From assembly GCA_964291295.2 (NCBI GenBank), contig OZ219754.1, positions 2,903,319 through 2,967,318 on the forward strand: a DNA stretch of 64,000 nt, read 5' to 3'. The DNA comes from an uncultured Candidatus Binatia bacterium (GTDB lineage: Bacteria > Desulfobacterota > Binatia > UBA9968 > JAJDTQ01). The position numbers and the translations under genes were made by a program. This document shows, piece by piece, positions 28,070 through 49,410 of the stretch. Position 1 is the stretch's first letter, and every line of letters begins with the position of its first letter. The notes beneath the pieces were generated by a model that saw nothing but the letters and a program-made list of their open reading frames with translations, made no database searches and was not told the DNA's origin.

Positions 28070-28072
28070 GCG

Positions 28073-28927: not shown

Positions 28928-30030
28928 CAGCCGTCCCGGCCTCCTTCACGGACCTGCGCGAGGCAGTCCAGGAACTTCCGGTTTTCGTCCGGGGTCCCCA
29001 CGGTCACCCGCACATGTTCGGGAAACTCCGGACCCACGGGCCGGACAATGACGCCCCGGCGCAACAGCGCCTCGAATACCCGGCCCGCCTCGCCGACCCG
29101 CACCAGGAGGAAGTTGGCATGACTCGGCACCCATTGGACCCCCAGGGCCGTCAGGCCCTCGGCCAGAAGGGCCAGACCCCGGCCGTTCCCCTCCACGCTC
29201 CGGCGCAGATGTTCCGTGTCTTCCACCGCCGCCGCGGCCGCCCACTGGGCGGCCGCATTGACGTTGAAGGGTTCCCGCACCTGGTTCATCATGGCCACGA
29301 TGTCGGGGCGGGCGACGCCGTAGCCGATACGCAGGCCCGCGAGGCCGTGGACCTTGGAAAAGGTCCGGATGGTCAGGATCGCCCGGTCGTCCCGGTGGTC
29401 GTCGAGGGAATCGGGGTAGTCCGGGTCGGTGGCGTACTCGAAGTAGGCCTCGTCCGCCACCACCAGCACCTCCGGCCCCACCCGATCGAGAAAGGCCTCC
29501 CACTCTCGCCGCCGATAGATGGTGCCCGTGGGGTTGTTGGGGTTGGCCAGGAAGACGCAACGCGTCTCGGGCGTCAAGGCCCGGGCCATGGCGTCGAGAT
29601 CGTAGCCGTAGTCCTTGAGCGGCACGGTGCGCGTCACCGCGCCGATGGCATCAAGGGCGAGGCCGTAGGCCACGAAGGTGCCCCGGGACAACAGCGCCTC
29701 GTCCCCGGGCCGCATGAACGTCCGTACCGCCATCTCGATGAGTTCGTTGGAGCCATTGCCGAAGATCAGCCGTCGGGGCTCCACCCCGAGCCTGGCGGCC
29801 AGCGCATTGCGGAGATGGAAGCAGCCGCCGTCAGGGTAGCGGTGAAGCGCCTCCAGCCGTTCCCGCAACGCGGCCACGGCCATGGGAGACGGACCCAGAG
29901 GGTTCTCGTTGGAGGCCAGCTTGGCCGACCCCTCAATGCCGTATTCCCGCTCCACCTCGTCAATGGGCTTGCCTGGCACGTATGGCACGATGCGCCGGAT
30001 GTGGTCCGGAACCTGATCGACGATACTCAT
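28927..30030 (-). CDS. hisC: Histidinol-phosphate / aromatic aminotransferase
   Basis: LASNENPLGPSP, ANPNNPTGT, PLP-lysine context RTFSKVHGLAGLRIGY. Confidence 0.9.
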   Translation of the reverse strand: MSIVDQVPDHIRRIVPYVPGKPIDEVEREYGIEGSAKLASNENPLGPSPMAVAALRERLEALHRYPDGGCFHLRNALAARLGVEPRRLIFGNGSNELIEMAVRTFMRPGDEALLSRGTFVAYGLALDAIGAVTRTVPLKDYGYDLDAMARALTPETRCVFLANPNNPTGTIYRRREWEAFLDRVGPEVLVVADEAYFEYATDPDYPDSLDDHRDDRAILTIRTFSKVHGLAGLRIGYGVARPDIVAMMNQVREPFNVNAAAQWAAAAAVEDTEHLRRSVEGNGRGLALLAEGLTALGVQWVPSHANFLLVRVGEAGRVFEALLRRGVIVRPVGPEFPEHVRVTVGTPDENRKFLDCLAQVREGGRDG

Positions 30031-30034
30031 GGAC

Positions 30035-31111
30035 TCATAGACTGCGGGGATAGGATCCGAGGACCTTCAGGGAGACGCAGCTCCTGGCCAGCTGGTTCAG
30101 CGCGCGCTTCACTAGGGGCTGTTCCTGATGACCTCTGAAATCGATGAAGAAGACATACTCCCATGCCTTCCGGCGCGAGGGACGCGACTCGATCTTGGTG
30201 AGGTTGATACCATGCTTCGCGAAGGGCGCCAGCAGGTCGTGGAGCACGCCGACACGGTCCTTGGCGGCGAAGACGATGCTGGTCTTGTCCTCGCCGGTGG
30301 GCGACGGCGGGTCATCGCCGATGACGAAAAAACGCGTGATGTTGTCGTGATTGTCGGCGATGTTGGCTTCAAGGATCCTGAGCCCGTAGATATCGCCCGC
30401 CATGCGGCTGGCCACCGCCGCCGCGGTACGGTCCGAACCAGCCTCCCGGGCTGCCTGCGCCGTGCTCGAGACCTCTTCCACGGAGGCATCGGCGAAGTGG
30501 GCGGCGAGCCAGCGGCGGCATTGGCCCAGGGCGTGCGGATGGGAGAGAACACGCCGAACATCCCTGGCCCGACCCGACCGGGAAAGCAGGCAGAGCTCGA
30601 TGTCGACGCTGACTTCGCCGCAGACCTGGACGTCGGAGTCCTGCAACAGATCCAGGGTGTGGGTCACCACCCCTTCGGTGGAGTTCTCCACCGGCACCAC
30701 CCCGTAGTCGACATTGCCCGCGCTCACTTCCCGGAACACGTCGTCGATGGTGCGCTCGGGAGCGTAGCGCACGGTACTGCCGAAATGCCGCTGCGCAGCC
30801 ATGTGGGTGAAGGTGGCCTCGGGGCCGAAGAACGCCACCCTCATGCGGGCCTCGATACCCCGGCAGGCCGACAACACCTCCCGGTACACGGCGCGAACCG
30901 ACGCGTCGGGCAACGGCCCCGCGTTGGCGGCGGTGGCCTGCCGGTACACGGCGCGCTCCCGGCTCGCCACGTAGACAGCTTTTCCGGTGAGACTTTTCTG
31001 ATGACCGATCTTCAGGGCAAGGGATGCCCTCTCGTTGAGAAGCGCTACAATCCTGGAATCAACCTGATCGATCCTTTTGCGGAGGGCATCTAGCGAGTCT
31101 CTGCGGCTCAA
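30035..31111 (-). CDS. pheA: Bifunctional chorismate mutase / prephenate dehydratase (P-protein)
   Basis: CM helix LDALRKRIDQVDSRIVALLNERASLALKIG, PDT RVAFFGPEATFTHMAA, ACT TSIVFAAKDRVGVLHDLLAPFAKHGINLTKIESRP. Confidence 0.9.
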   Translation of the reverse strand: MSRRDSLDALRKRIDQVDSRIVALLNERASLALKIGHQKSLTGKAVYVASRERAVYRQATAANAGPLPDASVRAVYREVLSACRGIEARMRVAFFGPEATFTHMAAQRHFGSTVRYAPERTIDDVFREVSAGNVDYGVVPVENSTEGVVTHTLDLLQDSDVQVCGEVSVDIELCLLSRSGRARDVRRVLSHPHALGQCRRWLAAHFADASVEEVSSTAQAAREAGSDRTAAAVASRMAGDIYGLRILEANIADNHDNITRFFVIGDDPPSPTGEDKTSIVFAAKDRVGVLHDLLAPFAKHGINLTKIESRPSRRKAWEYVFFIDFRGHQEQPLVKRALNQLARSCVSLKVLGSYPRSL

Positions 31112-32243: not shown

Positions 32244-33611
32244 TCAGCCCGTCAGACGGCTCATGAGCCGACGCGCCCTTTCCACCGCGCCCGGCTCGAT
32301 GGAAAGGGTCGCGGCGAAATCGCCCAGGGGCCGGGTGGCGTCGATGCCCATCTTCGCCGTAACGGCATCGGTGGCCGAGGGGTCCAGCAGCGTGCCCATG
32401 GCCTCGTCAACGATGAAAACGTCGCGGTCGGCCTGCATCCGGGTGGCCATGGCCCACAGCACCTGCTCTTCGTCGAATACATCGATGTCCGCGTCCACCA
32501 CCACCACCAGCTTGACGTAGTGGTCCGCCCCCAGCACGCTGAAGATGGCCTGCTTGGCCTGTCCTTCCGCGGTCTTTCTCAGGGAGACATAACAGTGGAA
32601 GCTGCCGATGCCCGACCGCACCGGCACGTGCACCGCCTTGAGATTGGGAATGGTCTTCCCCAGCACGTGGGTGAACTCCACTTCCCGGGGCATGGACAGG
32701 CAACGGCAGTGCTCCAGGCTGTCGCCGCCGTTGATATCCTGGTAGACGGCCCCGTTGCGGTAGTGCAACGCCGTGGCCTCGAACACGTTCTCGGTGCTCC
32801 GGCTCGAGGCGTAGCCGGTGAACTCGCCGAACGGCCCCTCCTTCTCCCGCACGTCCTTGAGGATCCGCCCCTCGATGACGACCTCCGACCACCGCGGCAC
32901 GTCGACGTCCACGGTGGCACAGCGCGTCAACTCCAACGGTTCTCCCAGAAGCCCGCCCTGAAGCGCGAACTTCTCCGTTCCCGCCGGCGGCAGCGTCAAT
33001 GCCCCCAGTGAGACCAGCGGGTGCACACCGATGCAGACCGCGGCCTCCAGGGACTCCCCCTTCTCCTCGGCGCGCCGGAAGTACTCGAACATGCGCCGCC
33101 GGGAATGGAGGCTGACCCCCAGCTTGCGCGGCCCCTTGAGCTGCATTCGATGGAACCCCACCGTACGCATGCCGGACTGTGGATCCCGCGCCACCACCAG
33201 CCCGGCGGTCACATAGGGGCCGCCGTCCTGCTCGAAATGGGTCAGCACCGGGAGTCGTCCCAAGTCCACCGATTCACCCAGCAGGGTGTTTTCCTGGAAC
33301 GGGGCGTCTTTCAACACCGCGGGCCGCATGGGCTGCTGGATCCGCTCCCTGAACTCGTTCACCAGCCCTTCCTCCGGCGTGCCGAAGATCCAGGCCAGTC
33401 GCGGGCGGTGCGCCAGCACGTTGGCCGCCACGGTGAAGTCACTCCCGGTGATGTTCCGGAATATCACCACCGGACAGGACGGCAGCCGTTCAGCCTCCAT
33501 CACCAGAGCAGTGGCCTCGAACTCCCGGGACACCGGCTCCCCGACTTCGAGCCACTGCTCCGGACACGCTTCCTTCAATCGCTTCAGGAAACCCTGCAGA
33601 TCCTGTGGCAC
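32244..33611 (-). CDS. UbiD-family (prFMN-dependent) decarboxylase/carboxylase, paralogue 1
   Basis: 455 aa. UbiD N-terminus (FLKRLKEACPEQWLEVGEPVS) and core motif EGPFGEFTGYASS. Confidence 0.85.
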   Translation of the reverse strand: MPQDLQGFLKRLKEACPEQWLEVGEPVSREFEATALVMEAERLPSCPVVIFRNITGSDFTVAANVLAHRPRLAWIFGTPEEGLVNEFRERIQQPMRPAVLKDAPFQENTLLGESVDLGRLPVLTHFEQDGGPYVTAGLVVARDPQSGMRTVGFHRMQLKGPRKLGVSLHSRRRMFEYFRRAEEKGESLEAAVCIGVHPLVSLGALTLPPAGTEKFALQGGLLGEPLELTRCATVDVDVPRWSEVVIEGRILKDVREKEGPFGEFTGYASSRSTENVFEATALHYRNGAVYQDINGGDSLEHCRCLSMPREVEFTHVLGKTIPNLKAVHVPVRSGIGSFHCYVSLRKTAEGQAKQAIFSVLGADHYVKLVVVVDADIDVFDEEQVLWAMATRMQADRDVFIVDEAMGTLLDPSATDAVTAKMGIDATRPLGDFAATLSIEPGAVERARRLMSRLTG

Positions 33612-33629
33612 TCGATTCTCCTCGACGAG

Positions 33630-34859
33630 TCAGGTGAACCTCTCGGCCACCGCCTCGATGTTGCAGTCGAGAGGCTCGGGCGGATCGACGGCCCGCAGCG
33701 CGGCATCGACGTCCTTGAGGCCGTGGCCCGTGGACAGGACGACGACGCGCTCCGCCGGCGAGATGTCGCCCCGTTCCACGAGTCTCACCAGCGCGGCAAC
33801 CGCGGCCGCTGCCGCGGGCTCGGCGAACAGGCCGGTGGTGCCGCCCAGAAGCCGCATGGCTTCCAGGATCTCGCCGTCCGATACGCTCACCGCGACCCCG
33901 CCGGAGGCCCGTAGATCCTGCACCGCCATGACCCCGTTGCGCGGCAACGCCACGCGGATGCTGTCGGCCAGGGTCTCCTCGGCGCCCGGCCGTATGGTCC
34001 CGTCGCCGTCGAAGGCCTGCTTGATGGCCTGCGAACCCTCGGCCTGGGCCGCCACCAGCCGCGGCAGCCGCGAGGTCCACCCCAGTCGTCGAAGGTCCGT
34101 GAAACCCTTCCAGACGCCGCTCAGGATACAGCCGTCGCCGGTGGCGACAATGACCGTGTCCGGCGGCTCCCAGCCCAACTGCTCGGCAATCTCCAGCGCC
34201 GCGGTCTTCTTGCCCTCCACGGTGTAGGGGTTGTAGCCGGTGTTGCGGTTGTACCACCGGAAGCGTTCGCCGGCCTCGACGCACAGGCTGAAGGCGCGGG
34301 AATAGCTGCCGCGGATGGAAAGAACGTCCGCGCCGAAGATCAGGAGTTGCGCCACCTTGGCCCGGGGCGCGGTTTCGGGCACGAAGATGTGACAGCGCAG
34401 CCCCAGGGCGGCCGAGAGGCAGGCCAGCGACGCGCCGGCGTTGCCGGTGGAGGCAGTGGCAAACTCCCGGCGGCCCAGTTCCATCCCCTTGAGCAGCACC
34501 ACGGAACTGGCCCGGTCCTTCAGGGAGGCGGAGGGGTTGGCGGTATCGTCCTTGATCCAGAGCCGTTCCAGACCCAGCGCCCGTCTCAGGCCTGGCACCG
34601 GGCACAGCGGCGTGGCTCCCACCGCCAGCGGGAACTCCACCGCGTCCGCCGCCAGCGGCAGCAACGGCAGGTAGCGCCAATGGTCCCGGAATGGCGCCGC
34701 GGCCAGCGCGCCGCGGCTCGCCGAAGCGCGCATCCGCTCGTAGTCGTAGGAAACCCTAAGAGTCCCCAACTCGCCGCAGGCCGGGCAACCGTACCGGTCC
34801 GGACCCTCCCGCCAGGCGGCGCCGCACAGGACGCAGGTCAGGTTTTCCGGCAGGGGCAT
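33630..34859 (-). CDS. Threonine-synthase-like PLP enzyme (beta family) with N-terminal zinc ribbon
   Basis: CVLCG...CPACG ribbon. PLP lysine in NPSASLKDRASS. 409 aa. Could be ThrC, cysteate synthase or another beta-replacement enzyme. Confidence 0.8.
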   Translation of the reverse strand: MPLPENLTCVLCGAAWREGPDRYGCPACGELGTLRVSYDYERMRASASRGALAAAPFRDHWRYLPLLPLAADAVEFPLAVGATPLCPVPGLRRALGLERLWIKDDTANPSASLKDRASSVVLLKGMELGRREFATASTGNAGASLACLSAALGLRCHIFVPETAPRAKVAQLLIFGADVLSIRGSYSRAFSLCVEAGERFRWYNRNTGYNPYTVEGKKTAALEIAEQLGWEPPDTVIVATGDGCILSGVWKGFTDLRRLGWTSRLPRLVAAQAEGSQAIKQAFDGDGTIRPGAEETLADSIRVALPRNGVMAVQDLRASGGVAVSVSDGEILEAMRLLGGTTGLFAEPAAAAAVAALVRLVERGDISPAERVVVLSTGHGLKDVDAALRAVDPPEPLDCNIEAVAERFT

Positions 34860-34883
34860 CGCGGGGAGTGGCGGCGGGCCCGG

Positions 34884-35918
34884 CTACCGCACCACATGGA
34901 GGTTGCGGCGCGCCAGCCTGGCGCGGTCCTCCTCGCTCACGGGATGTGCGCGGTCGGGGATCTCCACGGCCGGCTCCCTGCCGAACAGCGGCGTGGAAAA
35001 GTAACGCATGCCGGTGTCGTTGATCAGGGTCACGATCATCTTCGTGGACGGCAACGCCGCCGACAGCCGGTTGGCTGCGGCAACGTTGCAGCCCGACGAG
35101 ATGCCGCACAGCACGCCTTCTTCGCGCGCCAGGCGCCGGGCCATGGCGATGGAGTCCTCCGACGAGACCGTCACCACCCCGTCGACCCAGTCCAGGTCCA
35201 GATTCTCCGGGATGAAACCGTCGCCGATGCCCTCGATGGCGTGCGGCCCCCAGGTTCCGCCCGACAGGATCGGACACTCGGCGGGCTCCACGGCGTAGAC
35301 CTTCGCATTCGAGTTCCGCTCCTTGAGATACCGGCCGACGCCGGACACGGTACCGCCGCTGCCCTGGGAAGCCACGAACACGTCCACCTGGCCGCCGGTC
35401 TGCTGCCATATCTCCGGACCCGTGGTCTCGTAGTGCGCCGCGATGTTGTCCCGGTTGGAGAACTGGCCGGGCTCCCAGTAACGATCCGGCTCGGCGCGCT
35501 TGAGTTCCTCCACCTTCTCCAGACACAAATCCACGTCGCTCTCCGCTCCCGGGGTCAGCACCAGTTCCGCGCCATAGGCGCGCATGGTGGCCTTGCGCTC
35601 CTCGCTCATGCCCTCGGGCATGACGATCACCACCGGATAGCCGCAAACCGCGCCGATCATGGCGGTGGCGATGCCGGTGCTGCCGGTGGAGGCCTCCAGG
35701 AGGGTCATGCCGGGCTTGAGATCGCCGCGCTCCTCCGCGCTTCGGACCATGCGGCGCAGGATCCGGTCCTTGAGACTCGACGAGGGGTTCATGAACTCGA
35801 GCTTGCCGCACAACGTCTGGGGTCCGGCCGCCACCTTGCGAAGCCGCAGCAGCGGCGTCAACCCCGCCGTCTCGGTGATGTCCTCCGCGATCCGTCCACG
35901 CGCGGCCCAATCCGTCAT
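34884..35918 (-). CDS. Cysteine-synthase/CBS-like PLP enzyme (CysK/CysM family)
   Basis: ORF 34884..36167 trimmed to ATG 35918 (GGAGAGG SD). FMNPSSSLKDR, STGSTGIA, SQGSGGTVSG motifs. Confidence 0.85.
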   Translation of the reverse strand: MTDWAARGRIAEDITETAGLTPLLRLRKVAAGPQTLCGKLEFMNPSSSLKDRILRRMVRSAEERGDLKPGMTLLEASTGSTGIATAMIGAVCGYPVVIVMPEGMSEERKATMRAYGAELVLTPGAESDVDLCLEKVEELKRAEPDRYWEPGQFSNRDNIAAHYETTGPEIWQQTGGQVDVFVASQGSGGTVSGVGRYLKERNSNAKVYAVEPAECPILSGGTWGPHAIEGIGDGFIPENLDLDWVDGVVTVSSEDSIAMARRLAREEGVLCGISSGCNVAAANRLSAALPSTKMIVTLINDTGMRYFSTPLFGREPAVEIPDRAHPVSEEDRARLARRNLHVVR

Positions 35919-35953
35919 GGCTGTCCTCTCCGATCCGACACGAGGCCGCCCGG

Positions 35954-36826
35954 TCAAAGACCCAGCATGGCCCTGGGATTGTCGATGATGAGCTTCTCCA
36001 CGTTCCTGGGCGAGACGCCCTTCTCGTAGAGGCCCTGGGCGTAGAGCCACAGCGCCTCCGGCGGCAAGGGGTTGTGAGACTGGCCGGTATCGCTCATGAC
36101 CACGCAGTTGTCGAAGCCCATGGAGTCCATGATGCCCTTGGTGAACTCCAGGTTCACATAGGCCCACATGGGCGAGATGGTGCAGTAGCCGAACTCGCCG
36201 ATGGCGCCGTAGCGCATCATCTGCTTCAGGAAATCGAGGTTCATGCCCGCGGGCACGCGAAAGTAGGGATGGGTGATCAGGATCTTCCGGACCCCCCGCT
36301 CGTGGGCCGCCTTCACCAGCAGCTCGATCTCTCCCAGGGAGAGATGCGCGGTCCCCAGGATGGCGTCGTACTTGGCGATGAGTTCCAGCACCACCAGGGC
36401 CTCGTCCACCACCTTTCCGTCCTTGACCGCCGAGATGGGCTCCCCCCAGACGAAATCCGAACCGCTGGTCTGGGTGTCGTAGCTGCCCCGGGCGCCGTGG
36501 ACCTCCACGTGGTGCGCCGCGTCGATGGTGGGCATCCAGATCTCCTTGGCTCCCAGCCGTAGCCCCACCTCGGCCGCCGCCGGATTGATGCCGCCCACGA
36601 ACTGGTTCATCACCACGCCGCCGAAGACCTTGATGTCGGGAAACTCCTTCTGAATGAGCCAGGCGCGGCTGACCGTGCTCTCATGGTGGCACTTCAGCAC
36701 GATGGCCGCCATGCCCGCCTCCGCGGCCGCCTGCACGGCCTGACGGTCGTCCACCCGCCGCTGGAAAACGCAGGGATAGGAGTGGACGTGCAGGTCCACG
36801 GCACCGTCGAGTTTCATGAACTCCAT
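35954..36826 (-). CDS. Uncharacterised metal-dependent hydrolase, amidohydrolase/TIM-barrel-like
   Basis: ORF 35954..37276 trimmed to ATG 36826 (GGAGGA SD). N-terminal HxH (AVDLHVHSYP) and later His/Asp-bearing strands (LGTAHLS, ILITHP, VVMSDTG). Confidence 0.55.
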   Translation of the reverse strand: MEFMKLDGAVDLHVHSYPCVFQRRVDDRQAVQAAAEAGMAAIVLKCHHESTVSRAWLIQKEFPDIKVFGGVVMNQFVGGINPAAAEVGLRLGAKEIWMPTIDAAHHVEVHGARGSYDTQTSGSDFVWGEPISAVKDGKVVDEALVVLELIAKYDAILGTAHLSLGEIELLVKAAHERGVRKILITHPYFRVPAGMNLDFLKQMMRYGAIGEFGYCTISPMWAYVNLEFTKGIMDSMGFDNCVVMSDTGQSHNPLPPEALWLYAQGLYEKGVSPRNVEKLIIDNPRAMLGL

Positions 36827-36846
36827 GGGTCTCCTCCAGCCTGCCT

Positions 36847-37536
36847 TCAGTCCATGCCCACCAGCCCCACGCCCAGCGCCCGCCCCACCGCTTCGAGGGC
36901 GGCCTCGTTGCTGGTCACGATGGGCAGGTCGTAGGCATCCTTCAGGCGCGGCAGCGCCGCCACCGCCTGATAGTTGGTGCAAGAGATGAACAGTGCATCC
37001 ACCGGCGGTCTGGCGCCCAGCTTCTCGCGGGCGAAGGCCAGTATCTCCGGCGGTTCCACCAGCGCCAACTCGAAGTTGACGCGGATGCCCATGCCGTGGA
37101 TCGCCACCACTTCGATGCCGCCCTCCTCCACGCTGGCCTTGATACGGCTGTTCAACTCCTCGACATAGGGCGTCACCACGGCCACACGCCGGACCTTCAG
37201 CGACGCCAGCCGGCGCCGCACCGACTCGATGACACTGAGGGTGGGTTTGCCGGCAACTTCCGAGATCCGGCGGCACAACTCGGCATCGCCGGCGTTGCCC
37301 CGGAGCGCGCCGGCGCTGGTGCAGCCGAACACCATCAAGTCCGGGCGGGCCGTGGCCACGTCGGCGGCCGCGGACAGGCAGTGATCGTCGAGCATGGCCT
37401 CCTCGCCCCGGACCGTGGTGGCCTCCATGTACATGCGGCCCGTATGGACCGTGACCGACGCCGGCAGGTGACGGTAGAAGTCCACTTCCATGACGGTGTT
37501 CGACGAAGGGATGAGCAATCCGATCCGATGACCCAA
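36847..37536 (-). CDS. Asp/Glu-racemase superfamily enzyme, maleate cis-trans isomerase-like
   Basis: IGLLIPSSNTVME. Two catalytic-type cysteines in MVFGCTSAG and LFISCTNYQ, the pattern of isomerases/racemases rather than arylmalonate decarboxylase. Confidence 0.75.
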   Translation of the reverse strand: MGHRIGLLIPSSNTVMEVDFYRHLPASVTVHTGRMYMEATTVRGEEAMLDDHCLSAAADVATARPDLMVFGCTSAGALRGNAGDAELCRRISEVAGKPTLSVIESVRRRLASLKVRRVAVVTPYVEELNSRIKASVEEGGIEVVAIHGMGIRVNFELALVEPPEILAFAREKLGARPPVDALFISCTNYQAVAALPRLKDAYDLPIVTSNEAALEAVGRALGVGLVGMD

Positions 37537-37569
37537 TCCGTTACCTCCCTCTACGTCCCTCGCAGGGCG

Positions 37570-38640
37570 TCAGTCGTCATCGAACTCGCCCCGGGCCCTG
37601 GCCTCCTGGATGGCGAAGAAGACCCGCTCCGGGGTGATGGGCGTCTCGGTGATGCGGATGCCGATGGCGTCGTCGATGGCGTTCAGAATGGCCGGGGTGG
37701 TGGGGATCGTGGCGGGCTCGGCGACCCCCTTGGCGCCGAACGGCCCCCGGGGGTCCGGCACCTCCACGATCTCGCACTCGATGTCCGGCACGTCCATGGC
37801 GGTGGGTACCAGATAGAACGCCAGCGACGACGTGCGCGGCACGCCGTTCTCCAGGATATGCTGCTCGTAGAGACCGTAGCCCAGGCCCATGGCGGCGCCG
37901 CCCTCGATCTGTCCTTCCACCGCCGCCGGGTTGATGGCCTTGCCCGCGTCCGTGGCCGAAACCAGCCTGACCAGACGCACGCGCCCGGTCTCGGTATCCA
38001 CCTCCACCTCCGCCAACTGGGTTGCCCAGCCGTAGGTGGCGTAAGCGTCGCCCTGGGAAGTCTCCGGATCCACGTCGGCGGTGGTGTTGTCGTGCCAGCC
38101 CCAGGCCGCCGACCGCCGGCCGTGGAAATGGAGCTGCTGGGCCACCTTGCCCACCGACACCATGGGGCGGTCGCTGCCGACCTCGCACACCTCGCCGCGG
38201 CTCACGTGAAGGTTCTCCCTGGGACACTCCAGCATGCGCGAGGCCATGTCCAGGAGCTGCGCGCGCAGTTCCCCGGCCGCCCGCTGTACCGCCACCCCCT
38301 GCACGAAGGTGGCGCGGCTGCCCGAGGTGGGCCCGGCGTCCGGCGTGCTGCCGGTATCCGCCGCCACCACGCGAATCTGCTCCGGCTCGATGCCAAGCTC
38401 CTCCGCCGCCACCTGGGTCACCACGGTCATGACCCCCTGGCCCATGTCACAGGCCCCGGAGTAGATGGTGGTGGTGCCGTCCTCGGCCATCTCGATCTCG
38501 GCCGAGCCGATGTCGGCCCGGCTGAAGCCGTAGCCGATACCGTAATACATGGAGCCGATGCCCAGGCCTCTTCTTGTCGCCATGATCGCCCGGCCGCGCC
38601 CTTCAGGAGGCGGCCCGAGCCCGCCTGAACCGCAGGTCAT
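37570..38640 (-). CDS. Xanthine-dehydrogenase-family Mo-hydroxylase, C-terminal molybdopterin-binding piece (NdhM-like)
   Basis: RRGLGIGSMYYGIGYG...CDMGQGVMTVVTQVAAEELG...DTGSTPDAGPTSGSRATF...PFGAKGVAEPATIP (catalytic Glu context). ATG 38640 overlaps the upstream piece by 38 nt in another frame. ATG 38583 (MATRRGLG) is an alternative start. Confidence 0.75.
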   Translation of the reverse strand: MTCGSGGLGPPPEGRGRAIMATRRGLGIGSMYYGIGYGFSRADIGSAEIEMAEDGTTTIYSGACDMGQGVMTVVTQVAAEELGIEPEQIRVVAADTGSTPDAGPTSGSRATFVQGVAVQRAAGELRAQLLDMASRMLECPRENLHVSRGEVCEVGSDRPMVSVGKVAQQLHFHGRRSAAWGWHDNTTADVDPETSQGDAYATYGWATQLAEVEVDTETGRVRLVRLVSATDAGKAINPAAVEGQIEGGAAMGLGYGLYEQHILENGVPRTSSLAFYLVPTAMDVPDIECEIVEVPDPRGPFGAKGVAEPATIPTTPAILNAIDDAIGIRITETPITPERVFFAIQEARARGEFDDD

Positions 38641-39916
38641 GTGCGTCCATGTAGTCCTCGATGCGCCGCAGCGTCGCTTCGATGCCGCAGCCTTCGTTCA
38701 TCAACTGTCCGGTGGAGGAAGCCAGCCCCGGCCTGAGGCAGTTCTTCAAGCGGAACTCCAGCGGCGACATGCCCAGCCGGTGGGCCAGCTGGTCCATCTG
38801 GGACTCGTGGGCCACGGCCGCCTGCATCACCCCGAAGCCGCGCATGGCCCCGGAGACCAGATTGTTGGTGTAGAGCGTATAGGTGTCCACCCGGATGTTC
38901 GGCACTTCGTAGGGACCGGTGGCGTGGATGCCCGCCTTCTTGACCACGTAGGCGCCCAGCGAAACCCCCGCGCCCGTGTCGCCGTAGATGTCGCCGTCCA
39001 GGAAGGCCAGCCGGCCGTCGGCGCGGGCGCCGGTGCGGAAGTTCATGGCCATGGGGTGGCGCTTGGTGTTGGCGACGAGGGACTCCTCGCGGCTGTAGAC
39101 CAGGCGCACCGGCCGGTGCGTCCTGAGCGCCAGCAGGCCGGCGTGGATCTCCACGGTGATGTCGTCCTTGCGGCCGAAGCCGCCGCCGATGGGTGCCTGG
39201 ATCACCCGGACCCTGTTCATGGCAAGGCCCAGGGCCGGCGCGATCTGGCGGCGGTCCCGGTACGGGTACTGGGTGCCCGCCAGGATGTGCAGCACGCCGG
39301 AGGGATCCACATGGGCCAGTCCCGCCTCCGGCTCCATGGGAACGTGATCCATGCGATGGGTGTGGTAGGTGTTCTCCACGACCACGTCCGCCTCCCGCAT
39401 GCCCCGCTCCAGATCACCCTTGCGCACGGTGGTGTGCTGGAACACGTTGCCGCCCTCGTGGATCGAAGGCGCCGTCCGGTCCAGGGCATCCGCGTAGGTG
39501 AGAATCGGCCGCAGCGGCTCCAGGTCCACCTTGATCTTCGCCAGCGCCTCCTCGGCCGCTTCTTCGTCCTCCGCCGCCACCAGGGCCAGGGCATCGCCCG
39601 CCGACCGCACCTTGTCGTCCGCCAGCACCTGCTGGTCGAGCACGGCCAGTCCGTAGCGGTTGGTGCCGGGCACGTCCGCGGCCGTGAGCACGGCGGCCAC
39701 ACCGGGCGTCCGGGCGGCCTCCCTGGTGTCGATGTGGCGGATCACCGCGTGGGGCGTACCCGCCCACAGGATCCGGGCGTGGAGCATGCCCGGCACCACC
39801 ATGTCGCCCACGTACTCGGTGGCGCCCAACGCCTTCTCCAGCGCGTCGGGCCTGGTGACGTTCCTGCCGATCCAGTGATGCGGGCGGTCCGCCGCCCCGG
39901 AAGTCCCCTGGCTCAT
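38603..39916 (-). CDS. Xanthine-dehydrogenase-family Mo-hydroxylase, N-terminal molybdopterin-binding piece (NdhL-like)
   Basis: ORF 38603..40504 trimmed to ATG 39916 (ATGA overlap with the 2Fe-2S gene). GATEYVGDM, VENTYHTHRMDHVPMEPEA, APIGGGFGRKDD. 437 aa, ending where unsplit homologues continue. Confidence 0.8.
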   Translation of the reverse strand: MSQGTSGAADRPHHWIGRNVTRPDALEKALGATEYVGDMVVPGMLHARILWAGTPHAVIRHIDTREAARTPGVAAVLTAADVPGTNRYGLAVLDQQVLADDKVRSAGDALALVAAEDEEAAEEALAKIKVDLEPLRPILTYADALDRTAPSIHEGGNVFQHTTVRKGDLERGMREADVVVENTYHTHRMDHVPMEPEAGLAHVDPSGVLHILAGTQYPYRDRRQIAPALGLAMNRVRVIQAPIGGGFGRKDDITVEIHAGLLALRTHRPVRLVYSREESLVANTKRHPMAMNFRTGARADGRLAFLDGDIYGDTGAGVSLGAYVVKKAGIHATGPYEVPNIRVDTYTLYTNNLVSGAMRGFGVMQAAVAHESQMDQLAHRLGMSPLEFRLKNCLRPGLASSTGQLMNEGCGIEATLRRIEDYMDAHDLRFRRARAAS

Positions 39917-40392
39917 CTCCCCTCGCTCGTGATCTCTTCGGCGGCCGCGCGCACGGCCTTGACGATCTTGCCGTATCCCGTGCAACGGCATAGGTTCCCG
40001 GAGATGGCGAAACGGATCTCGTCGTCCGTGGGGTCGGGGTTGTCGCGCAGCAGCGCCCAGGCGCTCATGATCATCCCCGGCGTGCAGTAACCGCACTGTA
40101 TGCCGCCCTGCGCCACCATCTGCCGCTGCAAGGGATGGGGCCGGCCCTCTTCGGCCAAGGCTTCGATGGTCACCACCTCCCGGTCCACCGCGTCGGGAAA
40201 CAGCACCAGGCAGGACACCACCGGCCGGCCGTCGAGGAGAACCGTGCACGACCCGCACTCGGCCTCGTTGCAGCCCTTCTTGCTGCCGGTCAGACGAAGG
40301 TTGTCGCGCAGTACGTCCAGCAGGGACTGATGGGGTTCGGCTTCGGTTTCCCGGACGCCGCCGTTCACCCGCAGACGGTAGCGCCGCTTCAT
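39913..40392 (-). CDS. Mo-hydroxylase small subunit, 2x[2Fe-2S]
   Basis: GCNEAECGSCTVLLDG and QCGYCTPGMIMS...GNLCRCTGY cysteine motifs. 159 aa. Confidence 0.9.
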   Translation of the reverse strand: MKRRYRLRVNGGVRETEAEPHQSLLDVLRDNLRLTGSKKGCNEAECGSCTVLLDGRPVVSCLVLFPDAVDREVVTIEALAEEGRPHPLQRQMVAQGGIQCGYCTPGMIMSAWALLRDNPDPTDDEIRFAISGNLCRCTGYGKIVKAVRAAAEEITSEGR

Positions 40393-41282
40393 GCCGTCGC
40401 CGCCCGCCCGTCCGCCCGGGCCCTTTCCACCGCCTGTCGCAGCACGCGCCGCACCAGTATCCGCGCCAGCTCCCTGCGGTAGGCCGCCGACCCGCGAATG
40501 TCATCGATGGGGCAACACGCTTCCATCGCCGCGGTCCCGGCCCACTCCAGGCGTTCCGGGCTCGGCTCCCTGTCCAGCACCAGCTCCTCCGCCTTCAGAG
40601 CCCGAATGGGCGTGGGCGCCACCGCGCCCAGGGCGATGCGCACCGCCCTCACCCTTTCCCGGGCCGAATCCAGCGTCACGGAGGCGGCGGCGCTGGCTAT
40701 GGCGATGTCCATGGCCGACCGCGGCGTGAACCGCTCGAAGGCATCGCCGGTGAACGGTTCCGGTTCCGGCACCTCCACCGCCAGGAGCAACCCGCCGGCA
40801 CCCAGCACCGACGCCCCCGGACCTTGAAAAAAGTTCTCCACCGATACGGTCTCCCGTCGGGATTCATGGCCCCACAGGGTTATCGTGGCCCCCAGCGCCA
40901 TGAGCGGCGGCGCCGTATCCGCCGACGGCGAAGCATTGCACAGGTTGCCGCCGACGCTGGCCATGTTCCTCAACTGCGGCGAACCCACCACCCGGAGCGC
41001 CTCGCGGATCGAGGGAAAGCGCCGGCCCACGGCCGCGGACGTTTCCAGATCCCGCATGGGCGTGCAGGCCCTCACCTGGAGCCCCTTGCCGGGCGCGCAT
41101 TCCCAGCCCGAAAGCCCCGGTATCCGTTTCAGATTCACCAGCCCCTCGGCGCGGACCACCCGACGGCGCAACTGTATGACGATATCCGTACCGCCGGCAA
41201 GCGCCCGGCGCGCGCCTTTTCCCTCCCGCAACAACTCGCTCGCTTCCCGCAGGGAGGTGGGCTCGAAATAGTCAAAGCGCAT
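40389..41282 (-). CDS. Mo-hydroxylase medium subunit, FAD-binding (CoxM/XdhB-like)
   Basis: MRFDYFEPTSLREASELL...LAGGTDIVIQLR...NMASVGGNLCNASPSADT...DDIRGSAAYRRELARILVRR. No Cys-rich [4Fe-4S] insertion. Confidence 0.9.
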   Translation of the reverse strand: MRFDYFEPTSLREASELLREGKGARRALAGGTDIVIQLRRRVVRAEGLVNLKRIPGLSGWECAPGKGLQVRACTPMRDLETSAAVGRRFPSIREALRVVGSPQLRNMASVGGNLCNASPSADTAPPLMALGATITLWGHESRRETVSVENFFQGPGASVLGAGGLLLAVEVPEPEPFTGDAFERFTPRSAMDIAIASAAASVTLDSARERVRAVRIALGAVAPTPIRALKAEELVLDREPSPERLEWAGTAAMEACCPIDDIRGSAAYRRELARILVRRVLRQAVERARADGRAATA

Positions 41283-41313
41283 GCGTGGTGCTTCCGTTCG
41301 ACCCGGCTCCGGT

Positions 41314-42255
41314 TCAGGTCAGCCTGGGAATTACCTCCGAGGCGATCATCTCCAACTGCTCGAACTGGTAGCGGTAGGGGATCAGGATGATCCGGTGCAC
41401 ACCCGCGTCGACATGGGCCTGGAGCTGCTCCACGCACTGGTCCGCGGTGCCCCGAATCGCGTGCTCGATGGTCGAGTCGCTCCACTTGGCGATGTCCCAT
41501 TCGGTGGAGAGCCAGTGCCGCATGGGTCCGTCCGCCGCTTCCCTGGAGGGACCCACGTAAATGGCCAACTGGTTGGTGGCGGTGAGCTTCGACGGGTCGC
41601 GTCCGGCCTCGTCCGCCGCCGCCAGGACCTTGGCCCAGCTCCTGGCGAAACCCTCGGGCGTATAGAAGTAGGTCAGCCAGCCGTCTCCCTTCCGCCCCGC
41701 CCGGCGCAGCACCCGATCGATGTAGCCGCCGATGAGGATGGGCGGATGGGGCTTCTGAATCGGCTTGGGCAGCAGCACCGCCGAGCGCAGGTCCAATTCG
41801 TCCACCTGCGTGGTCACCCGATCCTCGGTCCACAGCCGCACCAGCAGATCCAGATTGCGCTCGAAGATGCGGCCCCGGTCCTTGAAGGAGATGCCGACGG
41901 CATCGAACTCCCGGGCGTACCAGCCGGAGGCGACCCCCAGCAGCAGGCGTCCGTTGGAGATCCGGTCCAGACTGCCCAGCACCTTCGCCGCCACCACCGG
42001 GTTGCGCAACGGCAGCACCATCACGCCGGTCCCCAGCCGGATGCTCCGGGTGCGCGCCGCAATGGCGGTGAGAACGGTCAAGGAGTCCAGCACCGGGAAG
42101 CTCGGGTCGACCCCCAGAAGGATATGGTCCCAGGCCCAGAGGGACTCGAAACCCAGCTCCTCGGCGCGCCGGGAATAACCTATCAAACCGTCCACGTCCG
42201 GTGTCTCCCCCGGACCGACGAAATTGCGAATGGCGACTCCAAAACGTACCGACAT
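41314..42255 (-). CDS. LLM-class (luciferase-like) flavin/F420-dependent oxidoreductase
   Basis: FGVAIRNF...AEELGFESLWAWDHIL...LGTGVMVLPLRNPVVAAKVLGSLDRISNGRLLLGVASGW. Confidence 0.85.
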   Translation of the reverse strand: MSVRFGVAIRNFVGPGETPDVDGLIGYSRRAEELGFESLWAWDHILLGVDPSFPVLDSLTVLTAIAARTRSIRLGTGVMVLPLRNPVVAAKVLGSLDRISNGRLLLGVASGWYAREFDAVGISFKDRGRIFERNLDLLVRLWTEDRVTTQVDELDLRSAVLLPKPIQKPHPPILIGGYIDRVLRRAGRKGDGWLTYFYTPEGFARSWAKVLAAADEAGRDPSKLTATNQLAIYVGPSREAADGPMRHWLSTEWDIAKWSDSTIEHAIRGTADQCVEQLQAHVDAGVHRIILIPYRYQFEQLEMIASEVIPRLT

Positions 42256-42275
42256 TTATCCAGGCCCCTCAGGTT

Positions 42276-43049
42276 TCACGCACGGCCCTGACCCAGAAAA
42301 CTCCTCTCCGGGTCGATGCTCCGCAAAGTTTCCAACTCTTCCTCGCTGGGCGGCTCGGTGACCGTCGGGCGATCGGGCACGGACAATTCGAACCCGGTGT
42401 TGTCCAGCACCTGCTGCACGGTGACGCCCGGGTTGAGGCTCTCCAGCCGCAGCCGGCGCGTCTCGTCGTCGAACACCAGCGTGCCCAGGTGGGTCACGAT
42501 ACGGCTGACGGTGCCGAACAGGAGCCCCGCCTCGCGGCGGGCATCTCCGCCCGACAGGAATCCCGGACTGGTGACGAAGTCCACCCGCGGCACGAATCGG
42601 CGCCGTTCGTGCATGGTCACCACCATGACCCTGCGGCACAGCGAGATGATGTCGTTGGCCCCGCCGCTGCCCGGCAGACGGACCTTGGGCCGCTGATAGC
42701 TGCCGATGACACTGGAGTTGAGGTTGCCATGACAGTCGATCTGCGCGCCGCCGACGAAACCCACATCAAGGAAACCCCGCTGGGCGAACAGGAACGTGTC
42801 GGTGATGCCCGGCAGCATCTGCGCCCGGGGCGCGGTACGCATCTCGTTGGTGGAGTATGGCAACCGGCCCGGAACCATCCTGGGACCCAGGCTGCCCCCC
42901 TCCACCACGATGACGAGCTGAGGGGCGCGGGTCTTCTGCGCCAGCACGGCGGACACCAGCGGCACGCCCACGCCGGCGAACACCGAGGTCACGCCCGCAA
43001 GCTGGCGGGAAGCGATCACCGCCAGAAGCTCGGTGGCCGAGCAGTTCAT
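42276..43049 (-). CDS. Family I CoA-transferase subunit B (glutaconate CoA-transferase-like)
   Basis: ORF 42276..43871 trimmed to ATG 43049 (ATGA overlap with subunit A). VFAGVGVPLVSAVLAQ...VEGGSLG...GGAQIDCHGNLNSS...LPGSGGANDI. Confidence 0.85.
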   Translation of the reverse strand: MNCSATELLAVIASRQLAGVTSVFAGVGVPLVSAVLAQKTRAPQLVIVVEGGSLGPRMVPGRLPYSTNEMRTAPRAQMLPGITDTFLFAQRGFLDVGFVGGAQIDCHGNLNSSVIGSYQRPKVRLPGSGGANDIISLCRRVMVVTMHERRRFVPRVDFVTSPGFLSGGDARREAGLLFGTVSRIVTHLGTLVFDDETRRLRLESLNPGVTVQQVLDNTGFELSVPDRPTVTEPPSEEELETLRSIDPERSFLGQGRA

Positions 43050-44002
43050 CCCGGCCCCAGCAATTCCTCGGCACAGCGTCGCTGCCGCGCCAGCGCCTCT
43101 TCGCCGAACAGCGCCAGGTAGGCCTCGTGACCCGGAACACCGTAGACGTAGCGGTCGAGATAGTCGTGGATGGCGCCGGTACCGCGCGCCCTGACGGCGT
43201 CGGTGTAGGCCTCGAAATGGGCGAAGTCGGCTTCGTACAAGCCGTAGCACTCGTGCGGGAAGGAGCCGTAGGGCGTCTCCACCACCGCATCCACCACCAG
43301 TCCCGGAATCACCGTGCGGTCCGGCCGGCGGCGAACCTCCTCCTCGGCAATGATCTCCTCGGCGGTGACGATGACCGTGGCGGCGGCCTTGGCGATATCC
43401 GCGTCCATGTGCGGATAGCCGTCGATCTGGCAGTTGCCGAAACGGTCGGCCCGATGCACGTGGATCAGCGCCACCTCGGGGAACAGGGCCGGCACGAGAC
43501 AAAGGGTCTCTCCCGTGAACGGGCATTTCATGGTCCGGGTGTCGGTGACCTCCATGAGGTCCGAACCCAGCATGGTCAGGGTGGGCAGGAACGGGATGCC
43601 CATGGCACCGGCCCGGTAACGGAGTCCGAGCCCCAGATGGCTCCACTCCTCGAACCGGATGCGCCCTCCTTCCACCTCTTCGCGAAGCTTGAGGGAAAGC
43701 CCCCAAGGGAGCGCGATGTCGAACCAGCTCGTCATCAGCGCGTCCACGGCCTTGGCGGCCATGAACAACTCGCCCTCGTAGCACATGAGGTTCCGGGAAA
43801 GGGTCAGGCCGCGTCTTTGCTGGCGCAACACCTCCATCAGCGCAGCCAGCGGGCTGCGCGAGAAGAGACATCCGCCGATGGCGATGTGGTCGCCGTCCCG
43901 AACCCGCCCAACGGCTTGCTCCAGGGTCGTGAGCTTCTCACCGGTGTACTGGGGCTTGGCCTCAAGCCGGCGGCGCGCCTCGACGAAATCGGCGGATTTC
44001 AT
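43046..44002 (-). CDS. Family I CoA-transferase subunit A (glutaconate CoA-transferase-like)
   Basis: LTTLEQAVGRVRDGDHIAIGGCLFSRSPLAALMEVLRQ...HVHRADRFGNCQIDG. 318 aa. AAGAGGA SD. Confidence 0.85.
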   Translation of the reverse strand: MKSADFVEARRRLEAKPQYTGEKLTTLEQAVGRVRDGDHIAIGGCLFSRSPLAALMEVLRQQRRGLTLSRNLMCYEGELFMAAKAVDALMTSWFDIALPWGLSLKLREEVEGGRIRFEEWSHLGLGLRYRAGAMGIPFLPTLTMLGSDLMEVTDTRTMKCPFTGETLCLVPALFPEVALIHVHRADRFGNCQIDGYPHMDADIAKAAATVIVTAEEIIAEEEVRRRPDRTVIPGLVVDAVVETPYGSFPHECYGLYEADFAHFEAYTDAVRARGTGAIHDYLDRYVYGVPGHEAYLALFGEEALARQRRCAEELLGPG

Positions 44003-49361: not shown

Positions 49362-49410
49362 CGTTACCTCCGCTCGGTATGCATTCCATCTGCCGTGCTT
49401 TCGGGACGTG

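Follow-up and report, generated by a model that had tools for sequence, protein, structure and literature searches.

The operon and its occurrence in other genomes

A 64,000-nucleotide stretch of the genome of an uncultured Candidatus Binatia bacterium (contig OZ219754.1, positions 2,903,319 to 2,967,318; hereafter the window) carries on its minus strand, from 44002 to 32244, a run of 12 genes that encode a glutaconate-type CoA-transferase, a luciferase-like (LLM) oxidoreductase, a four-subunit molybdenum (Mo) hydroxylase, a two-Cys racemase/isomerase, a DUF6282 protein, two pyridoxal-phosphate (PLP) enzymes and a UbiD-family (de)carboxylase (Table 1). The coordinates bear out the preliminary description of this DNA as 12 same-strand genes with three ATGA overlaps and other gaps of 18–35 nt: the three 4-nt overlaps all read ATGA and the remaining gaps are 20, 31, 19, 33, 20, 35, 24 and 18 nt. 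The family calls for all 12 genes were likewise confirmed by Pfam and NCBIfam. An alternative start of g7 is possible at 38640, but the start at 38583 is preferred because the orthologues are 335–337 aa long. From the spacing we infer that the 12 genes are transcribed as a single unit; a simple scan for internal promoter- or terminator-like signals gave none above shuffle expectation and does not inform on the operon boundaries. We read the operon, with a probability of roughly 60%, as encoding the oxygen-independent catabolism of a carboxylated N-heteroaromatic compound.

Table 1. The 12 genes of the operon and further features of the window
Feature	Product or content	Position	Strand	Length and start	Domains and remarks
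g1	Glutaconate-type CoA-transferase subunit A	43046..44002	-	318 aa	PF01144 100 bits
g2	CoA-transferase subunit B	42276..43049	-	257 aa	PF01144 84 bits; ATGA overlap with g1
g3	Luciferase-like (LLM) oxidoreductase, F420-type subfamily	41314..42255	-	313 aa	PF00296 197 bits
g4	Mo-hydroxylase flavin adenine dinucleotide (FAD) subunit	40389..41282	-	297 aa	PF00941 + PF03450
g5	Mo-hydroxylase 2x[2Fe-2S] subunit	39913..40392	-	159 aa	PF01799 + PF00111; ATGA overlap with g4
g6	Mo-hydroxylase Mo subunit, N-terminal half	38603..39916	-	437 aa	PF01315 + PF02738; ATGA overlap with g5
g7	Mo-hydroxylase Mo subunit, C-terminal half	37570..38583	-	337 aa	PF20256 261 bits
g8	Two-Cys racemase/isomerase (Asp/Glu-racemase, maleate-isomerase, arylmalonate decarboxylase (AMDase) family)	36847..37536	-	229 aa, TTG start	PF17645 81 bits
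g9	DUF6282, amidohydrolase-superfamily metal hydrolase	35954..36826	-	290 aa	PF19799 222 bits
g10	CysK-like PLP enzyme	34884..35918	-	344 aa	PF00291
g11	ThrC-like PLP enzyme, N-terminal four-Cys ribbon	33630..34859	-	409 aa	PF00291
g12	UbiD-family (de)carboxylase, HmfF-like	32244..33611	-	455 aa, GTG start	PF20695, PF01977, PF20696
Second UbiD gene	UbiD-family protein, just upstream of mutL	47922-49457	-	511 aa	Above the generic TIGR00148 cut-off
Third UbiD-like stretch	UbiD-like, near the window end	~63192-63974	-		35% identity to g12 over 268 aa
Open reading frame at the third UbiD-like stretch		63088-63960			No NCBIfam match
Aromatic amino-acid biosynthesis block	aroA, tyrA-type prephenate dehydrogenase, hisC, pheA	26744-31111	-		Directly downstream of the operon; ordinary housekeeping, compact

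When an alignment of DUF6282 was searched against one genome per species, 56 loci were recovered, about 30 of them in Candidatus Binatia metagenome-assembled genomes (MAGs), some of which are labelled Thermodesulfobacteriota, Syntrophobacterales or Deltaproteobacteria. The DUF6282 proteins of the Binatia loci are 95–98% identical to that of the window, and the mutL, miaA, EamA and pheA flanks are common to both. Co-occurrence of the block in other genomes was a check set beforehand, and it was run: a tblastn synteny table places the full 12-gene set, in the same order and between mutL-miaA and pheA, in about 27 Binatia MAGs. Since the same order is seen in dozens of genomes, the arrangement is not due to chance.

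Taken as one unit, the 12-gene block first described thus holds within the Binatia; beyond them, what is widely conserved is a nine-gene core or a smaller one of Mo hydroxylase, two-Cys enzyme and DUF6282. The nine genes (FAD, FeS, Mo-N, Mo-C, two-Cys enzyme, DUF6282, CysK-like, ThrC-like and UbiD, in this order) are found in a clade with about 80% DUF6282 identity, carried by Methylomirabilales, Anaerolineae, groundwater 'Deltaproteobacteria', some Binatia and an unassigned ENA contig flanked by transposases. This core is present in at least four lineages besides the 12-gene Binatia form, with Dehalococcoidia counted among them; the Dehalococcoidia loci keep the CoA-transferase, LLM, two-Cys, DUF6282, CysK-like and ThrC-like genes and have divergent Mo genes. 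In Chloroflexia DUF6282 is accompanied by the two-Cys enzyme, the ThrC-like gene and all four Mo genes. Where identity is down to about 50%, in Moorella, Moorellaceae, Peptococcaceae, Clostridia and Solirubrobacteraceae, the Mo hydroxylase, two-Cys enzyme and DUF6282 are kept, so that the smallest core, which includes an LLM or PreA-like reductase, extends to Firmicutes and Actinobacteria. The anaerobes among these have, immediately before DUF6282 and in place of the LLM enzyme, a DHO_dh+Fer4 protein of 384 aa whose score to dihydropyrimidine dehydrogenase PreA, 300 bits, falls just short of the cut-off. Nearby are a regulator of the PucR type and uptake systems (TRAP, MFS or ABC), a setting that fits catabolism; Solirubrobacteraceae have the trio of LLM and CoA-transferase genes instead of the PreA-like reductase. 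A reductase of one kind or the other nearly always adjoins the DUF6282 core.

Partners were counted at those DUF6282 loci that are at least 12 kb long, 47 in all. The two-Cys enzyme accompanies DUF6282 at 41 of them and the Mo hydroxylase at 40, followed by the ThrC-like (35), CysK-like (32), LLM (28), GctAB-like (27) and UbiD (24) partners. These counts, together with the levels of synteny, indicate that the block is real, modular and horizontally mobile, and that the 12-gene form is its Binatia version. The CoA-transferase and LLM genes, which occur together only in Binatia, Dehalococcoidia and Solirubrobacteraceae loci, are a lineage-restricted addition to a widely conserved core.

Three further features of the DUF6282 loci were recorded. 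The CysK-like and ThrC-like genes, elsewhere always adjacent, are separated by 2.7 to about 9 kb of extra DNA in three Binatia-type loci (L011, L015 and L034). In one ENA genome the nine-gene core is flanked by Transposase_mut, an IS66-family transposase and a truncated UbiD_C fragment (L001/L002, 2862-4509 and 15590-17074), which suggests recent mobility of the cassette. And in two anaerobes, one of them Syntrophaceticus schinkii (L048, 8803-11701; the other is L055, 5627-7027), the DUF6282 gene adjoins a corrinoid-binding protein or an MtmB-like methyltransferase, neighbours that hint at an N-methylated substrate for some versions of the cluster.

Most sister Binatia have up to four additional genes between UbiD and EamA. 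These encode a second UbiD (UbiD2, about 32% identity), a PF04909 amidohydrolase, an ornithine-cyclodeaminase (OCD)/mu-crystallin-family protein and a chlorohydrolase-family protein of the guanine-deaminase/TRZ-ATZ type (568 bits to PRK06151). Examples are L020 (14679-19921) and L016 (14903-17393), the latter with the OCD-family and chlorohydrolase-family genes only; others are in L006, L007, L009, L011 and further loci. The window has none of the four, which makes the window locus a trimmed form; a second subunit partner for UbiD was set aside, since the UbiD2 of the sister genomes is without an orthologue here. The extra genes fit a carboxylated, possibly aminated, N-heteroaromatic substrate.

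The OCD-family gene also bears on a biosynthetic role, in which the cluster would make a heteroaromatic cofactor, a metallophore or an unusual amino acid, with the PLP enzymes building the skeleton and UbiD acting as a carboxylase. CysK-like and ornithine-cyclodeaminase-like pairs make diaminopropionate in siderophore pathways, UbiD enzymes are reversible, the OCD-family protein of some sister loci scores 110 bits to SbnB (below the cut-off), and SBP_bac_5 transporters lie near some loci. However, the cluster is without ATP-grasp, nonribosomal peptide synthetase, radical-SAM, methyltransferase or export functions, the neighbours are uptake systems and catabolic regulators, and the nearest characterised relatives of the enzymes are all catabolic. 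We consider a biosynthetic cluster very improbable.

The operon itself stands between miaA and mutL, which lie upstream on the same strand, and a convergent EamA transporter, after which come pheA, hisC, tyrA and aroA (Table 1).

Families and active sites of the ring-modifying enzymes

The Mo hydroxylase has a complete set of domains across its four subunits. Eight cluster cysteines are present in g5 (positions 41, 46, 49, 61, 100, 103, 135 and 137), and g7 has a GVAEP motif with the catalytic Glu, which we take, by motif, to correspond to VGEPP (bovine E1261). The best solved relative of g6 is the nicotinate dehydrogenase (NDH) subunit NdhL of Eubacterium barkeri (3hrd_A; 374 bits, 43% identity), well ahead of the runner-up structure (205 bits) and of 4-hydroxybenzoyl-CoA reductase (192 bits). 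Residues 13-420 of g6 align with residues 5-412 of the 425 of NdhL, and the Mo subunit is split at the identical point as in NdhL/NdhM; the sizes agree with a nicotinate-dehydrogenase-type split as well (about 425 aa for L and about 330 aa for M, versus 437 and 337 aa). Two pocket positions, numbered after xanthine oxidase (XO), were compared with NDH: g6 has D at XO E802 and K at XO R880, where NDH has L and R, and F914 is kept. These residues point to a polar pocket that is an exact match neither to NDH (L, R) nor to xanthine dehydrogenase (XDH; E, R). The top NCBIfam scores of g6 are to pucD and to the Se-dependent XDH.

The UbiD enzyme is most similar, among solved structures, to HmfF of Pelotomaculum thermopropionicum (PtHmfF, 6h6v; 299 bits, 41% identity), with E. 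coli UbiD at 165 bits. Aligned with PtHmfF, it retains both catalytic motifs, HR with its Arg and EGPFGE with the E-x4-E pattern. Of the three residues reportedly specific to the HmfF pocket (Payne et al. 2019), with a numbering consistent with the 6h6v alignment, H296 and R304 are retained and R331 is replaced by S.

Relatives of this enzyme were also seen elsewhere. HmfF-like UbiDs of about 50% identity adjoin the A and B genes of an ATP-dependent hydantoinase/oxoprolinase in Desulfosporosinus orientis DSM 765 (L145, 10001-15214) and in Oxobacter pfennigii (L146, 5633-11368), the latter locus with an M24 creatinase-like gene and an Opp-type ABC system as well. The decarboxylase is here again paired with an enzyme that opens cyclic amides, and the physiological substrate of the HmfF-like branch may be a cyclic amide acid rather than furandicarboxylate (FDCA). 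Within the window, the second UbiD-family gene (Table 1) has 29% identity to g12 and 295 bits to the phenylphosphate carboxylase subunit beta, below the cut-off, and is not UbiD2; the frame and extent of the third UbiD-like stretch are ambiguous.

The two-Cys enzyme scores 89 bits against the EutA model, below the cut-off, and its solved relatives are AMDase and maleate isomerase (46–56 bits). Both Cys motifs, GCTSA and SCTN, are retained in all 50 of 50 orthologues. By sequence, this pair of cysteines is the configuration of a racemase/isomerase and not of the single-Cys arylmalonate decarboxylase, and it is common to isomerases and racemases, which it does not tell apart.

For DUF6282 a search of the PDB returned noise only, and a literature search by the name DUF6282 found no paper that mentions the family. 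The AlphaFold (AF2) model (predicted local confidence, pLDDT, 89.8) is an amidohydrolase-type TIM barrel, and the nearest folds (Foldseek, probability 1.0) are phosphotriesterase (PTE)-like lactonases, E. coli Php and dihydroorotase, with template-modelling (TM) scores of about 0.6 and 11–16% identity. No variation is seen at H13, H15, H161, H186 or D246, and conservation of E95 is 90% or higher; all six lie at strand ends of the model, in the ligand layout of the amidohydrolases (HxH on strand 1, an acid on strand 4, His on strands 5 and 6 and Asp on strand 8).

The best solved relative of the CoA-transferase subunit A is GctA (1poi_A, 143 bits), followed by AibA (106) and IpdA (67), and the sizes of the two subunits match the GctAB type (about 320 and about 260 aa). 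The Glu of the (I/V)xxEGG motif (VEGG) in subunit B, which may correspond to the catalytic Glu54 of GctB, is retained in 27 of 27 orthologues. An IpdAB-like ring hydrolase and an AibAB-like decarboxylase were set aside as functions for this pair, GctA being nearest and the Glu conserved. The LLM enzyme passes the cut-off of the F420-type subfamily TIGR03619 (205.7 bits versus 166.9).

These families strengthen the link to N-heteroaromatic carboxylate catabolism drawn in the preliminary description, since the nearest solved relatives of the Mo hydroxylase and of UbiD are nicotinate dehydrogenase and HmfF. A route of the Trudgill/hmf type for furan or thiophene carboxylates would draw on the same UbiD: FDCA would be decarboxylated, the CoA ester hydroxylated by the Mo enzyme, a lactone or thiolactone opened by DUF6282 and sulfide captured by the CysK-like enzyme. 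The retained H296 and R304, the CoA-transferase, the resemblance of DUF6282 to PTE-like lactonases and the passing cysK score of g10 (below) are all in keeping with such a route, but it gives the ThrC-like enzyme no role, the CoA-transferase is not part of the widely conserved core, g6 is nearest to NDH and not to 4-hydroxybenzoyl-CoA reductase, and the PucR, PreA-like and deaminase neighbours indicate N heterocycles. We therefore give a furan or thiophene substrate hardly any weight.

More can be said for a pyridine-carboxylate route of the kind known from nicotinate breakdown in Azorhizobium and E. barkeri, with hydroxylation at C6, reduction, ring opening and activation of a C5/C6 dicarboxylate by the GctAB-like transferase; UbiD would convert, for example, dipicolinate to picolinate. 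This logic matches the one reportedly described by Kitts et al. 1992. Besides the nearest solved Mo subunit with its identical split and the transferase with its conserved Glu, the maleate-isomerase-like enzyme has counterparts in the aerobic nic and pic clusters, an HmfF-like UbiD suits a ring with carboxylates that flank the heteroatom, and the sister loci have a protein of PF04909, the family to which PicC presumably belongs. On the other side, both PLP enzymes are left idle although they lie within the conserved nine-gene core, the later E. barkeri enzymes are all absent, and g6 differs from NDH at both positions compared, with just 43% identity to NdhL. A pyridine route is possible, though in our judgement rather unlikely.

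The PLP pair and its links to purine-type clusters

The CysK-like enzyme passes TIGR01139 (cysK) narrowly, with 358.9 bits versus a cut-off of 350.95, and has 306 bits to M. tuberculosis CysK1. Its PLP lysine lies in an SLKDR motif. The loop that binds the substrate carboxylate, which in canonical cysteine synthase we take to be TSGNTG, reads STGSTG (TTGSTG in three copies) in all 38 of the 38 DUF6282-linked copies with a detectable motif, with loss of the substrate-loop Asn. The ThrC-like enzyme is above the TIGR00260 (thrC) cut-off (184 bits versus 167; Aquifex ThrC 203 bits) and has a fold-type II core with the PLP lysine, K114, retained in its own SLKDR motif. Relative to Thermus thermophilus ThrC it has the changes T88A, S155G, R160T and N188D, at residues reported to hold the O-phosphohomoserine phosphate (Omi et al. 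2003). Every one of the 15 aligned copies that are linked to the cluster, at identities as low as 47%, has the changes at 88, 160 (T/M/L) and 188; a further ThrC paralogue in a Binatia locus retains T, R and N. Judged by these residues, the ThrC-like proteins form a subfamily that cannot bind phosphohomoserine in the usual manner, and the pipeline label 'threonine synthase' would be a mis-annotation.

These substitutions bear on the scenario by which the preliminary description might have been refuted, namely that thrC and cysK are housekeeping genes which only happen to border a catabolic operon. That scenario is excluded: in different phyla the two genes accompany the cluster, the phosphate-binding residues that define threonine synthase are missing from the ThrC-like enzyme, and one Binatia genome has a canonical ThrC paralogue at another place. 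In its broader form, with chance or position bringing cysK, thrC and perhaps a ubiquinone-type UbiD beside an unrelated Mo-hydroxylase operon, juxtaposition could appeal to the TIGR scores of g10 and g11 and to the housekeeping surroundings, mutL and miaA upstream and pheA, hisC, tyrA and aroA downstream. It is contradicted by the order of DUF6282, CysK-like, ThrC-like and UbiD genes, kept across phyla with differing flanks, by the loss of T88, S155, R160 and N188 from g11 when the second Binatia ThrC retains phosphate-site residues, by the loss of the loop Asn from g10, and by the 169 bits of g12 against the E. coli-type UbiD model, whose cut-off is 788. We regard this explanation as scarcely credible.

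ThrC-like homologues with 53–59% identity occur in three further contexts. On a Ktedonobacteraceae contig the gene has a CysK-like gene on one side and SsnA on the other, and the contig also carries adenine deaminase, XDH, an M20 hydrolase, carbamate kinase and an ornithine carbamoyltransferase (OTCase)-like gene; on an Oligoflexia contig it is near M20, OTCase-like and kinase genes; and on a third contig its neighbours are XDH subunits and an ABC transporter of the Bmp type. When metagenomes were scanned with nothing but the motifs of the ThrC-like subfamily as the key, 80 loci were returned, 44 of them at least 8 kb long. At least one purine-catabolism marker is present in 39 of these 44, and DUF6282, the two-Cys enzyme, UbiD, GctAB and LLM are present in none. 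Two of the ThrC-like loci have matches at the NCBIfam equivalog level to YgeW (776 bits), YgeY (593), carbamate kinase, Se-dependent XDH (1296), YgfK (1300) and D-hydantoinase, and several of the purine-type contigs come from the human gut. The partner of the ThrC-like enzyme in the purine clusters is either a CysK-like protein 60–64% identical to g10 or a distant 490-aa PALP protein.

One layout recurs among the metagenome loci (L084, L085, L093, L098, L115, L138 and others, of which L085, L093 and L098 are from human gut): Bmp, carbamate kinase, YgeW and YgeY stand on one strand, and a YheO-like PAS-HTH regulator, the 490-aa PALP protein and the ThrC-like 'threonine synthase' (328 bits to NF006050, above the cut-off) on the other. 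The name threonine synthase is probably wrong in this layout as well.

The PLP enzymes, then, are not orphans, because the same subfamily is present in purine-type catabolic clusters. The preliminary description had them fit none of the pathways it named. In the counterpart neighbourhood of E. coli the PLP enzyme is the diaminopropionate ammonia-lyase YgeX. Most simply read, the ThrC-like enzyme, alone or together with its partner, would carry out a deaminating elimination comparable to that of YgeX on an amino acid derived from the ring. A role of the PLP pair as S or Se donor in Mo-cofactor maturation was set aside, the Mo hydroxylase being present in only 13 of the 44 metagenome loci and the tie to YgeW, YgeY and carbamate kinase being tighter.

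The same neighbours lend some plausibility to a variant of reductive purine/pyrimidine breakdown that acts on an imidazole or pyrimidine carboxylate, with ring opening to a diamino or ureido amino acid that the PLP pair would deaminate. The ThrC-like/CysK-like subfamily beside YgeW, YgeY, carbamate kinase, SsnA, Se-dependent XDH, YgfK and adenine deaminase is joined here by the PucR regulator and PreA-like reductase of the anaerobe versions, the best NCBIfam scores of g6, its D and K at the XO E802 and R880 positions, and the guanine-deaminase-type hydrolase of the sister Binatia loci. Yet a carbamoyltransferase or carbamate kinase is found at 0 of the 47 DUF6282 loci and an M20 enzyme at 2, DUF6282, the two-Cys enzyme, UbiD, GctAB and LLM are at none of the 44 purine-type loci, and the GctAB-like transferase is without an obvious role. 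We hold such a variant to be unlikely.

A proposed pathway and its relation to known systems

Under the reading that we favour, catabolism of a carboxylated N-heteroaromatic compound by oxygen-independent steps, the HmfF-like UbiD would first take off a ring carboxylate, and the four-subunit Mo hydroxylase would then place a water-derived oxygen beside the ring nitrogen to give a lactam. The F420-type LLM reductase, or in the anaerobe versions the PreA-like Fe-S flavoenzyme, would saturate a ring double bond, and the two-Cys enzyme would racemise or isomerise the new centre next to the carboxylate. DUF6282, as a binuclear-metal amidohydrolase, would open the cyclic amide by hydrolysis. From the resulting amino acid the CysK-like and ThrC-like enzymes would remove a beta or gamma N substituent, in a YgeX-like role, and the GctAB-like CoA-transferase would activate the short dicarboxylate that is left over. 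Two classes of substrate lead: a (di)carboxylate of pyridine, for example nicotinate, picolinate or dipicolinate, and an imidazole or pyrimidine carboxylate of purine origin. Mimosine, willardiine and nicotianine-type conjugates were set aside as too rare for such wide conservation, and we found no evidence for them.

Several points weigh against this pathway. No one substrate explains all 12 enzymes: with a pyridine both PLP enzymes would be idle, and with an imidazole, pyrimidine or purine the GctAB-like transferase would be. The predicted active-site residues of g6 (D, K) fit neither NDH nor XDH. A carbamoyl-handling enzyme is absent, with YgeW or carbamate kinase at 0 of the 47 DUF6282 loci. 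Searched by tblastn with UbiX of E. coli, the 64-kb window gave no homologue, whereas the same query gives a 60% match in locus L140. The data do show that the unit is conserved, to which families and nearest relatives its enzymes belong, that the catalytic motifs are intact, that the phosphate site of ThrC is lost and that there is a link to purine clusters. The order of the steps, the cofactors (F420, prenylated flavin mononucleotide, Se or S on Mo), the direction of UbiD, the PLP reaction and the substrate are all inferred. A recent published description of the route may also exist.

More tentatively, and at less than even odds, we propose that DUF6282 is a new cyclic-amide (lactam/imide) hydrolase and that the ThrC-like protein is a new PLP lyase which, with its CysK-like partner, strips a beta or gamma amino or ureido group, the same pair replacing diaminopropionate ammonia-lyase in gut purine/urate clusters. 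If true, this would tie an environmental Binatia pathway to a medically relevant one. Solving the ThrC-like reaction would also fill a step in anaerobic purine/urate breakdown in the gut, because the same subfamily is found in YgeW/YgeY/carbamate-kinase clusters, some of them from human gut. Binatia, Methylomirabilales, Dehalococcoidia and Anaerolineae are uncultured and abundant in soils, groundwater, sediments and sponges, and a conserved unit of 9–12 genes informs on their diet. The cluster gives DUF6282 a genomic context, and with it testable substrates. Should the substrate be dipicolinate or another pyridine carboxylate, the cluster would supply the genes for its degradation; we know of no genetics for a dipicolinate or pyridine-carboxylate route of this type. 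The cluster is well defined, widely distributed and experimentally tractable, and it touches gut purine metabolism.

Of the systems already described, nicotinate catabolism is a natural point of comparison. In E. barkeri and Azorhizobium nicotinate is hydroxylated, reduced and hydrolysed, and the Azorhizobium route ends in glutarate and CoA transfer (a C5 dicarboxylate). The operon resembles E. barkeri NdhFSLM in its four-subunit Mo hydroxylase with the same split of the Mo subunit and 43% identity of g6 to NdhL, and, as proposed here, it would share with both nicotinate routes hydroxylation next to the nitrogen, reduction of the ring and opening by an amidohydrolase-superfamily enzyme. Unlike the E. 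barkeri cluster, the 12 genes include no enamidase, 6-hydroxynicotinate reductase, 2-(hydroxymethyl)glutarate dehydrogenase or dehydratase, B12-dependent (2-methyleneglutarate) mutase or dimethylmalate lyase; DUF6282 and an LLM or PreA-like reductase stand in their stead, a UbiD and the PLP pair come in addition, and the pocket residues of g6 are D and K instead of the L and R of NDH.

The YgeW/YgeX/YgeY/HyuA/YqeA neighbourhood (E. coli ygeV-ygfT and the gut purine/urate clusters), which is linked to selenium-dependent Mo hydroxylases, is similar in that a Mo hydroxylase occurs there together with amidohydrolases that open the ring, a reductase that acts on it and PLP enzymes of fold type II, and clusters of the YgeW type share the ThrC-like subfamily and have CysK-like partners close to g10. 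They differ in that the window is without YgeW, carbamate kinase and the M20 enzyme YgeY (0, 0 and 2 of the 47 DUF6282 loci, respectively), and the purine clusters in turn are without DUF6282, the two-Cys enzyme, UbiD, GctAB and LLM. The operon also has features in common with the hmf cluster for FDCA and 2-furoate (HmfF/G, HmfD, HmfABC and HmfE): its UbiD belongs to the HmfF branch (41% identity), there is an enzyme for CoA activation, and the Mo hydroxylase carries three cofactors. Here, however, activation would be by a CoA-transferase and not a ligase, the hmf ligase, hydratase and UbiX/HmfG are absent nearby, R331 of HmfF is replaced, and the PLP enzymes, DUF6282, the two-Cys enzyme and LLM have no hmf counterpart.

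With the genes for ectoine and hydroxyectoine use, eutABC-doeAB, the operon shares PLP enzymes of fold type II and a two-Cys enzyme that is EutA-like (89 bits); sister or distant loci add an OCD/EutC-like gene, a DoeA-like M24 gene and a DoeB2-like M20 gene. Unlike the operon, the ectoine route has no Mo hydroxylase, UbiD or DUF6282, and the scores are far below the family cut-offs; ectoine as the substrate was set aside on account of these scores and because ectoine offers no sp2 C-H to a Mo hydroxylase. Collectively, the cluster is best filed as a variant of Mo-hydroxylase-based N-heterocycle catabolism and not as a new kind of system, with one uncharacterised family, DUF6282, and one mis-annotated PLP subfamily.

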